Shown in pieces: positions 17,356 to 17,382 of a stretch of 53,120 bases of DNA (positions are counted from its first letter, which is position 1; each line of letters starts with the position of its first letter). Location: assembly GCF_003334255.1 (NCBI RefSeq), contig NZ_QOWU01000036.1; one strand, written 5' to 3'. The notes beneath the pieces were generated by a model. It made no database searches. It was given only the letters and a program-made list of their open reading frames with translations, and had not been told where the DNA came from. The translations under genes were made by a program, and so were the position numbers. Source of the DNA: Escherichia coli. GTDB lineage: Bacteria > Pseudomonadota > Gammaproteobacteria > Enterobacterales > Enterobacteriaceae.

Positions 17356-17382
17356 AAGTATCAACGTGTCATGTTGATACTT
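17356..17382. promoter_or_regulatory. Perfect 10-bp-arm palindrome upstream of ygiZ (candidate operator)
   Basis: AAGTATCAAC-GTGTCAT-GTTGATACTT, ~30 nt upstream of ygiZ ATG. Confidence 0.4.

Follow-up and report, generated by a model that had tools for sequence, protein, structure and literature searches.

The perfect inverted repeat AAGTATCAAC-GTGTCAT-GTTGATACTT, read from the sequence at positions 17356–17382 of the plus strand, within what would be the ygiZ leader, is most probably (at a rough probability of 0.6) a quasi-palindrome in the remnant of an effector gene, which was perfected by templated mutation and now forms an inconsequential leader hairpin, and not a dedicated operator. All positions refer to the window, that is, to the whole stretch of 53,120 nucleotides of Escherichia coli DNA that was analysed. 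In the course of events that we propose, the ancestral site would have carried hcp, a gene for a lysozyme-like effector and ygiZ as its immunity gene. The branch that gave rise to K-12-type E. coli and E. whittamii would then have lost hcp together with the greater part of the effector gene, of whose 3' end some 80–140 nt would have been left, as alignment shows, as untranslated leader in front of an orphan ygiZ. A weak chance inverted repeat in this debris would have grown more symmetrical via substitutions that copied the complement of one arm into the other, for which intramolecular template switching at a quasi-palindrome during replication appears to be the most economical mechanism. As the last step, seen directly in the genomes compared, a change from A to C at 17380 arose once in a small phylogroup-A clone and gave the perfect 10-bp arms. 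The resulting hairpin would leave the ribosome-binding region untouched, so that its effect on ygiZ expression is probably small, amounting to modest protection of the mRNA at most. The palindrome itself therefore matters little, and the more valuable outcome is that ygiZ would be a T6SS immunity gene left orphaned behind what remains of the gene for a lysozyme-like effector.

Around the palindrome the window carries the genes parE, ygiN, mdaB, ygiZ, qseC and qseB in this order, with qseBC and mdaB-ygiN both on the minus strand. The palindrome lies in the divergent intergenic region (318 nt) between mdaB (16513–17094, minus strand) and ygiZ (17413–17745, plus strand), which encodes a 110-aa DUF2645 inner-membrane protein. 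Its geometry is exactly as described in the original prediction, with perfect arms of 10 bp, a spacer of 7 nt and a distance of 30 nt from the end of the repeat to the ygiZ ATG at 17413. In MG1655 it corresponds to 3,172,229–3,172,255, positions there being obtained by subtracting those of the window from 3,189,611. That prediction also held that such a palindrome is uncommon by chance, which is correct for the 10/10 form, since only 0.7% of dinucleotide shuffles of the intergenic region contain a 10/10 inverted repeat (spacer 3–12 nt), but does not apply to the 9/10 form typical of the species: about 11% of the shuffled regions contain 9/10 arm matches, and the form found in K-12 is therefore statistically unremarkable. 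In the window as a whole there are 12 perfect 10-bp-arm loci against ~0.9 placements expected from shuffles, the others being mostly GC-rich, terminator-like hairpins. We found no sign that the element belongs to the REP, BIME, ERIC or MITE families, as BLAST against complete E. coli genomes placed it at a median of one position per genome.

The original prediction had proposed conservation of the palindrome as a check, and in its perfect form the palindrome does not pass it. Alleles were counted in 5,426 complete E. coli genomes with a 40-mer query, every 28-nt seed of which was forced to include 17380. The mdaB-proximal part of the intergenic region was matched in all 5,426 genomes and most of the region in 3,322. 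The perfecting base, C at 17380, which pairs with G17358, is present in 8 of the 5,426, and A (GTTGATAATT, with 9/10 matches and a perfect 7-bp core TATCAAC/GTTGATA) in 2,964, K-12 among them. The eight C-allele genomes represent a single haplotype, which rules out a recurrent origin of the C allele, as a hotspot would give. Five C-allele genomes compared with the window differ from it at 0–3 positions over 5 kb and also have a derived base in common at 18604, from which it follows that the A-to-C change at 17380 arose once; over 14860–19899 the window is identical to strains G1/2, WP7-S17-ESBL-04, MB06232 and cM8a. Over the same interval the only differences from K-12 GM4792 are at 17380, 18604 and 19289 (3 of 5,040 positions); on this comparison the window is a very close phylogroup-A relative of K-12 and not K-12 itself. 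The perfection of the palindrome is thus a private one-base allele and no species trait. There is a caution in this: perfect symmetry seen in only one genome need not mark a conserved operator and may have come about, through one base change in one clone, as an accident of quasi-palindrome evolution.

The wider history of the site became visible when alleles from relatives were gathered; a contig search with YgiZ gave E. whittamii only, and the rest came from exact-protein look-ups of YgiZ homologues. In Citrobacter, cryptic Escherichia, B2 E. coli and metagenomic contigs, the site between mdaB and qseC holds three genes, hcp, a gene for a 236-aa protein and ygiZ. The trio is found at L001 1750–3177 (UTI89) and also in L013–L016, L020, L029, L032, L034 and L035. 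In B2 strains such as UTI89 mdaB is followed by hcp (159 aa), the 236-aa gene and ygiZ, with a gap of 6 nt between the last two, and ygiZ of the window corresponds to the immunity-gene position of this hcp-effector cassette. Since the trio occupies the same site in Citrobacter, cryptic Escherichia and B2 strains, it is the older state and the K-12 arrangement a deletion derivative. Relic forms, in which the cassette is reduced, are found in E. whittamii, Escherichia sp. E2593 and others, and the mdaB–ygiZ intergenic region measures 318 nt in the K-12 type and 357 nt in a divergent relic type, strain 4973, the ~160 nt nearest to mdaB being conserved in all alleles. In O157:H7 (strain SS NE 1040-1, L002 1501–1610) both relic and ygiZ are cleanly deleted, with the junction directly after ...TTAGCAAAAGTCT, leaving mdaB, 109 nt and qseC. 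The locus is therefore polymorphic within E. coli, where the full cassette, the relic and the complete deletion all occur. Two further alleles are of interest in their own right. Strain 23AR1101 (L011 1501–2314) has an IS1A inserted ~50 nt into the variable intergenic part, followed by yqiK in place of ygiZ-qseC, so this site has been rearranged. In L031 (554–2000) the 1.4 kb that separate mdaB from ygiZ are without a called gene, yet the interval aligns with intact cassettes near ygiZ, and it may represent either a pseudogenised cassette or a gap in gene calling.

Comparison of relic and intact alleles places the palindrome within the former effector gene. The putative decayed 3' end of the effector, now non-coding, occupies 17330–17412 (plus strand) and would make up the distal ygiZ leader, as indicated by MAFFT, nhmmer and Smith-Waterman alignments. 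In the MAFFT alignment of relic and intact alleles the palindrome falls on effector codons ~207–218 (PARDTDDYKFI), with TTGCCTGCGCGTGATACAGATGATTATAAATTC opposite GTATCAACGTGTCATGTTGATAATTATAAATGG. An nhmmer profile built from four relic alleles matches the intact loci exactly at the palindrome segment (E ~1e-3 in a 5-kb search space); nowhere else is the match of this profile to the effector 3' end so well preserved. In Smith-Waterman comparisons with the effector, 1 of 500 shuffles scored as well as E2593 and 2 of 500 as well as E. whittamii, in both cases at the collinear position. The K-12 relic taken alone gave no significant Smith-Waterman match (53 of 500 shuffles), and so its homology to the effector is carried by the E2593, E. 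whittamii and profile results together with collinearity. The relic alleles also differ in their secondary deletions: K-12, E. whittamii and L030 are without a ~47-nt piece that s4973 and E2593 retain, and L033 (1–135; a metagenomic contig with a YgiZ 78% identical) has kept this piece of the effector and is missing the palindrome segment. L033 is thus a third kind of relic and, as the deletions differ, the relic alleles appear to have decayed independently, as is typical of a pseudogene in decay. The relic has diverged by 17% and the third codon positions of mdaB by 10% when K-12 is compared with E. whittamii, so that no general constraint is visible on the relic.

Other interpretations of this interval were also considered. 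A small ORF at 17352–17432 (beginning MKVSTCHVDTYKW...) was rejected, as its ATG is TAA or GTA in E. whittamii and a TAG truncates it in s4973 and E2593; its reading frame is merely the old effector frame. A 9-codon ORF starting at the ATG at 17370 was likewise discarded, this ATG being ACG in E. whittamii and L030. The MAFFT hint that the left part of the relic (17272–17334) derives from the region upstream of hcp was not significant against shuffles, and the left junction is uncertain.

How the arms came to match can be followed along the same alignment. We scored ten pairs in register, as read from the relic/intact alignment, and polarised the changes with intact-cassette outgroups. On this basis arm complementarity rose after the gene decayed, from 3/10 in Citrobacter and 5/10 in UTI89, where the segment is coding, to 7/10 in s4973 and 9/10 in E2593, K-12, E2865, E. 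whittamii and L030 (the last two with an extra G-C pair), and finally to 10/10 in the window. The left core arm TATCAAC (17359–17365) is common in the alignments to all K-12-type genomes, E. whittamii and L030. In the right core arm GTTGATA (17373–17379) the TTG is derived, and the ancestral CAG is found in E2593, s4973 and the intact effector genes. In the K-12/E. whittamii lineage a left-arm G changed to A and an adjacent right-arm CA to TT, which turned one G-C pair and one A-A mismatch into two A-T pairs, and in E. whittamii and L030 a T-to-C change closes a G-C pair. Position 3 of the arms was mended in different ways, by a left-arm T in E2593 and by the right-arm C opposite G17358 in the window clone; the left-arm base at 17358 is polymorphic, with G in the window and K-12, A in E2865, 503025, E. 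whittamii and s4973, and T in E2593. The locus therefore shows what is expected of a quasi-palindrome, namely an imperfect repeat whose derived, partly clustered substitutions make the arms complementary. The window allows 159,360 different single substitutions, of which only 96 would perfect a 9/10 repeat, which leads to a chance expectation of ~0.02 perfecting substitutions among the ~32 lineage-specific ones in the window (the latter number extrapolated from 3 per 5 kb). That template switching corrects imperfect inverted repeats is documented in E. coli and proteobacteria, in E. coli quasi-palindrome reporter systems (PMC7202029), in a genome-wide model of inverted-repeat conservation (PMC5941160) and for the creation and maintenance of RNA hairpins (PMC8794818). 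From intact gene through relic alleles to perfect palindrome, the locus offers a clean natural series for the growth of an inverted repeat.

The position of the palindrome relative to the ygiZ promoter bears on what it could do. According to the published study, this promoter is activated by BglJ-RcsB, its start was mapped by 5'-RACE and the site is centred 65–68 bp upstream (PMC3950696). The core wwTTCykA, as given there, occurs twice in the region, as TTTTCTGA at 17233–17240 and as AATTCTTA at 17270–17277 (both plus strand), and combining this motif with the published box-to-start spacing (PMC3950696) would place the start near 17302 for the first candidate box and near 17339 for the alternative one. 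The start near 17339 would be served by a −35 element TTGGTT (17302–17307) and a −10 element GAAAAT (17325–17330), this −10-like hexamer being kept in all relic alleles. In addition, a consensus promoter ATGACA-18-CATAAT would start near 17279. The palindrome is downstream of all three plausible starts and would thus be in the 5' leader. Two strains vary at one of the candidate boxes: TC_EC10 (L010, equivalent to 17270–17278 of the window) has a 9-bp tandem duplication in which AATTCTTAC appears twice, and JCC-EE7 carries AATTATTA at the same place.

Lying downstream of the BglJ-RcsB-dependent promoter as we place it from the published spacing and motif, the palindrome would be transcribed and fold as a local hairpin of the 5' leader. 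The predicted folding energy is −12.6 kcal/mol for the window, −7.2 for K-12 and −8.1 for E. whittamii, and as RNA the stem can be extended by G-U, U-A and G-C pairs. Six relic alleles are predicted to form the hairpin (those of the window, K-12, E. whittamii, L030, E2593 and s4973), and the pair probability of the core is 0.91–1.0 in every allele that has it, whichever 5' end is assumed. The hairpin was predicted neither to sequester nor to expose the ribosome-binding site, as the probability of 17398–17418 being unpaired is 0.43–0.46 in both alleles and with all three candidate 5' ends. A scan of 16400–18400 with Rfam 15 gave no match overlapping the palindrome, even at E up to 10. The structured 5' leader suggested in the original prediction is thus compatible with the local hairpin and with its predicted place downstream of the plausible starts.

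The hairpin could also be under selection. It is possible, although in our opinion fairly unlikely, that the hairpin is a selected cis-acting RNA element of the ygiZ 5' leader, which evolved de novo from gene debris after translational coupling was lost; equally tentatively, it would have been maintained because it protects an untranslated leader that is long and AT-rich, RNase E and Rho being examples of what it might stabilise this leader against. The prediction of the hairpin at the homologous place in all six alleles and downstream of every candidate start would agree with this, as would the covariation over seven relic alleles, with 89.6% of cells paired, compensatory changes on both sides at two pairs and a score that 9 of 500 shuffles reach. 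However, seven related sequences make a weak covariation test, since such a level is met without structure in 5–25% of related-sequence sets. Between E. coli and E. whittamii the arms are conserved and the loop is variable (0 of 14 core-arm and 3 of 7 loop positions changed), but the conservation of the arms is not significant (p ~0.07). Template switching gives the same signature without selection, and in these alleles the two processes leave the same pattern. Furthermore, L033 retains ygiZ without the hairpin, O157:H7 and many other genomes are without the region, and the hairpin sits away from the 5' end, where stabilising hairpins act, with no predicted effect on accessibility of the ribosome-binding site. 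The more specific proposal, that a newly evolved element drawn from toxin-gene debris protects or tunes the mRNA of an orphan immunity gene, appears unlikely to us; if it were true, the A-to-C change at 17380 would represent an adaptive strengthening of the leader stem.

The original prediction also offered the operator of a dimeric regulator, which at this place would repress ygiZ as a roadblock downstream of the promoter. The dyad symmetry, the 7-nt spacer, the proximity to the ygiZ start and core arms that are identical in ~3,000 E. coli genomes and E. whittamii all speak for such a site, and TTGATAATTA, the right arm in K-12, may resemble the kind of AT-rich site that H-NS prefers. We nevertheless regard an operator as very unlikely. 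The sequence derives from coding DNA of little symmetry (3–5 of ten pairs, as in the intact genes), s4973 and E2593 have changed arms, and L033 does not have the segment. The half-site, which the prediction had suggested looking for elsewhere, is not enriched in the 53-kb window, where 4 matches with at most one mismatch, two of them supplied by the palindrome itself, compare with an expectation of 2.9; BLAST places the element once per genome, and we know of no E. coli regulator consensus that matches the half-site. The only regulator documented for this promoter, BglJ-RcsB, binds 65–68 bp upstream of the start (PMC3950696). Because the palindrome lies in the decayed remains of a deleted T6SS toxin gene, an ordinary hairpin of the leader is its most likely nature, rather than a regulator site.

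On the minus strand the same repeat could in principle act as a weak intrinsic terminator, stopping antisense or read-through transcription from qseBC before it reaches mdaB, as both qseBC and mdaB-ygiN are transcribed from that strand. A consensus scan does return it, with a 10-pair stem, a loop of 7 nt and TCATCTTTTA as its tail. One such match is, however, at the level of shuffles (0.9 expected), the stem has only 3 G-C pairs and is weaker still in K-12, the T-run is interrupted, and a much stronger inverted repeat is already present between ygiZ and qseC, at 17751–17782, so that we consider this role highly improbable. On the plus strand the repeat does not have the form of an intrinsic terminator, since the T-run begins 9 nt past the stem. 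The stronger repeat, TCTATGAGAGTCGTT-TT-AACGGCTCTCATAGA, has 15-bp arms, lies between the convergent stops of ygiZ (17745) and qseC (17791) and is probably a bidirectional terminator. At the other end of the region, directly upstream of mdaB, 17153–17198 contains overlapping inverted repeats of TTAGCAAAA/TTTTGCGAA-like units, which O157:H7 and UTI89 also share at 100% identity. These repeats have the appearance of activator boxes of the promoter of mdaB, which we take to be a member of the MarA/SoxS/Rob regulon.

The preferred reading, a perfected quasi-palindrome in toxin-gene debris, draws attention to the gene that the debris precedes. In the relatives hcp and a toxin-fold gene lie directly upstream of the gene in immunity position, at the same site. 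Hcp matches TIGR03344 at 2e-58. In sequence-only searches the 236-aa protein had no match in Pfam, NCBIfam or the PDB; a profile search yielded 334 relatives, in many cases as the C-terminal domain of a larger protein, and among the relatives aligned one is fused to PAAR and three have weak SLT matches in Pfam. Glu82 is invariant across 37 sequences and is part of an ES motif in eight close ones. An AlphaFold model from the 8 close sequences was unusable (pLDDT 41), whereas 37 diverse homologues gave a model with pLDDT 92.8, for which the top Foldseek folds were Tse3, MltE, MltF and goose-type lysozymes. These scores are weak (E 0.016–0.05, TM 0.44–0.54) but the matches are entirely consistent with each other, and we infer that the 236-aa protein is a predicted lysozyme-like (Tse3/MltE-fold) T6SS effector with YgiZ as its immunity protein. 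As ygiZ stands in the immunity position without the effector in K-12-type genomes, there it looks like a putative orphan T6SS immunity gene, which O157:H7, lacking ygiZ, would be without. The literature that we searched contained no paper tying ygiZ or DUF2645 to T6SS; published work treats its product solely as an inner-membrane protein that is uncharacterised and that, when overexpressed, is of help under envelope-type stress (PMC7181518). Our analysis thus proposes, for a K-12 gene that is still uncharacterised, a concrete function that can be tested.

Among known systems, the palindrome is closest to quasi-palindrome hotspots. Like these, it had an imperfect start, arm-matching derived changes, an adjacent double CA-to-TT change and a final single transversion that removed the last mismatch in the window clone. 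It differs in that the event is deduced from comparative sequences and that there is one haplotype, with no sign of recurrence. As for the transcript, 5'-terminal stem-loops of the ompA type stabilise bacterial mRNAs, and the ygiZ leader resembles them in its predicted stable local hairpin within an untranslated leader. Here, however, the hairpin would be ~17–80 nt from the 5' end as we place it, and any stabilising effect is putative.

The effector model resembles in fold Tse3 of the Tse3-Tsi3 pair (the P. aeruginosa T6SS muramidase and its immunity protein) as well as MltE and MltF, and the likeness extends to the invariant catalytic-type Glu, the weak SLT matches and the one PAAR-fused homologue. 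In contrast to these proteins, the fold E-values are weak and the E. coli effector is without a sequence match in Pfam, NCBIfam or the PDB, and YgiZ, a small multi-pass membrane protein, is unrelated to Tsi3. Orphan T6SS immunity genes beside degraded effector genes occur in Vibrio, Bacteroidales and Pseudomonas. The ygiZ locus differs from those in being a lone hcp-linked trio at a housekeeping site, outside any T6SS cluster or immunity-gene array, and YgiZ is likened to such immunity proteins by the position of its gene, neutralisation of the effector being putative. The resemblance lies in ygiZ having been kept after the effector was lost, with an effector remnant still upstream of it and the locus polymorphic.
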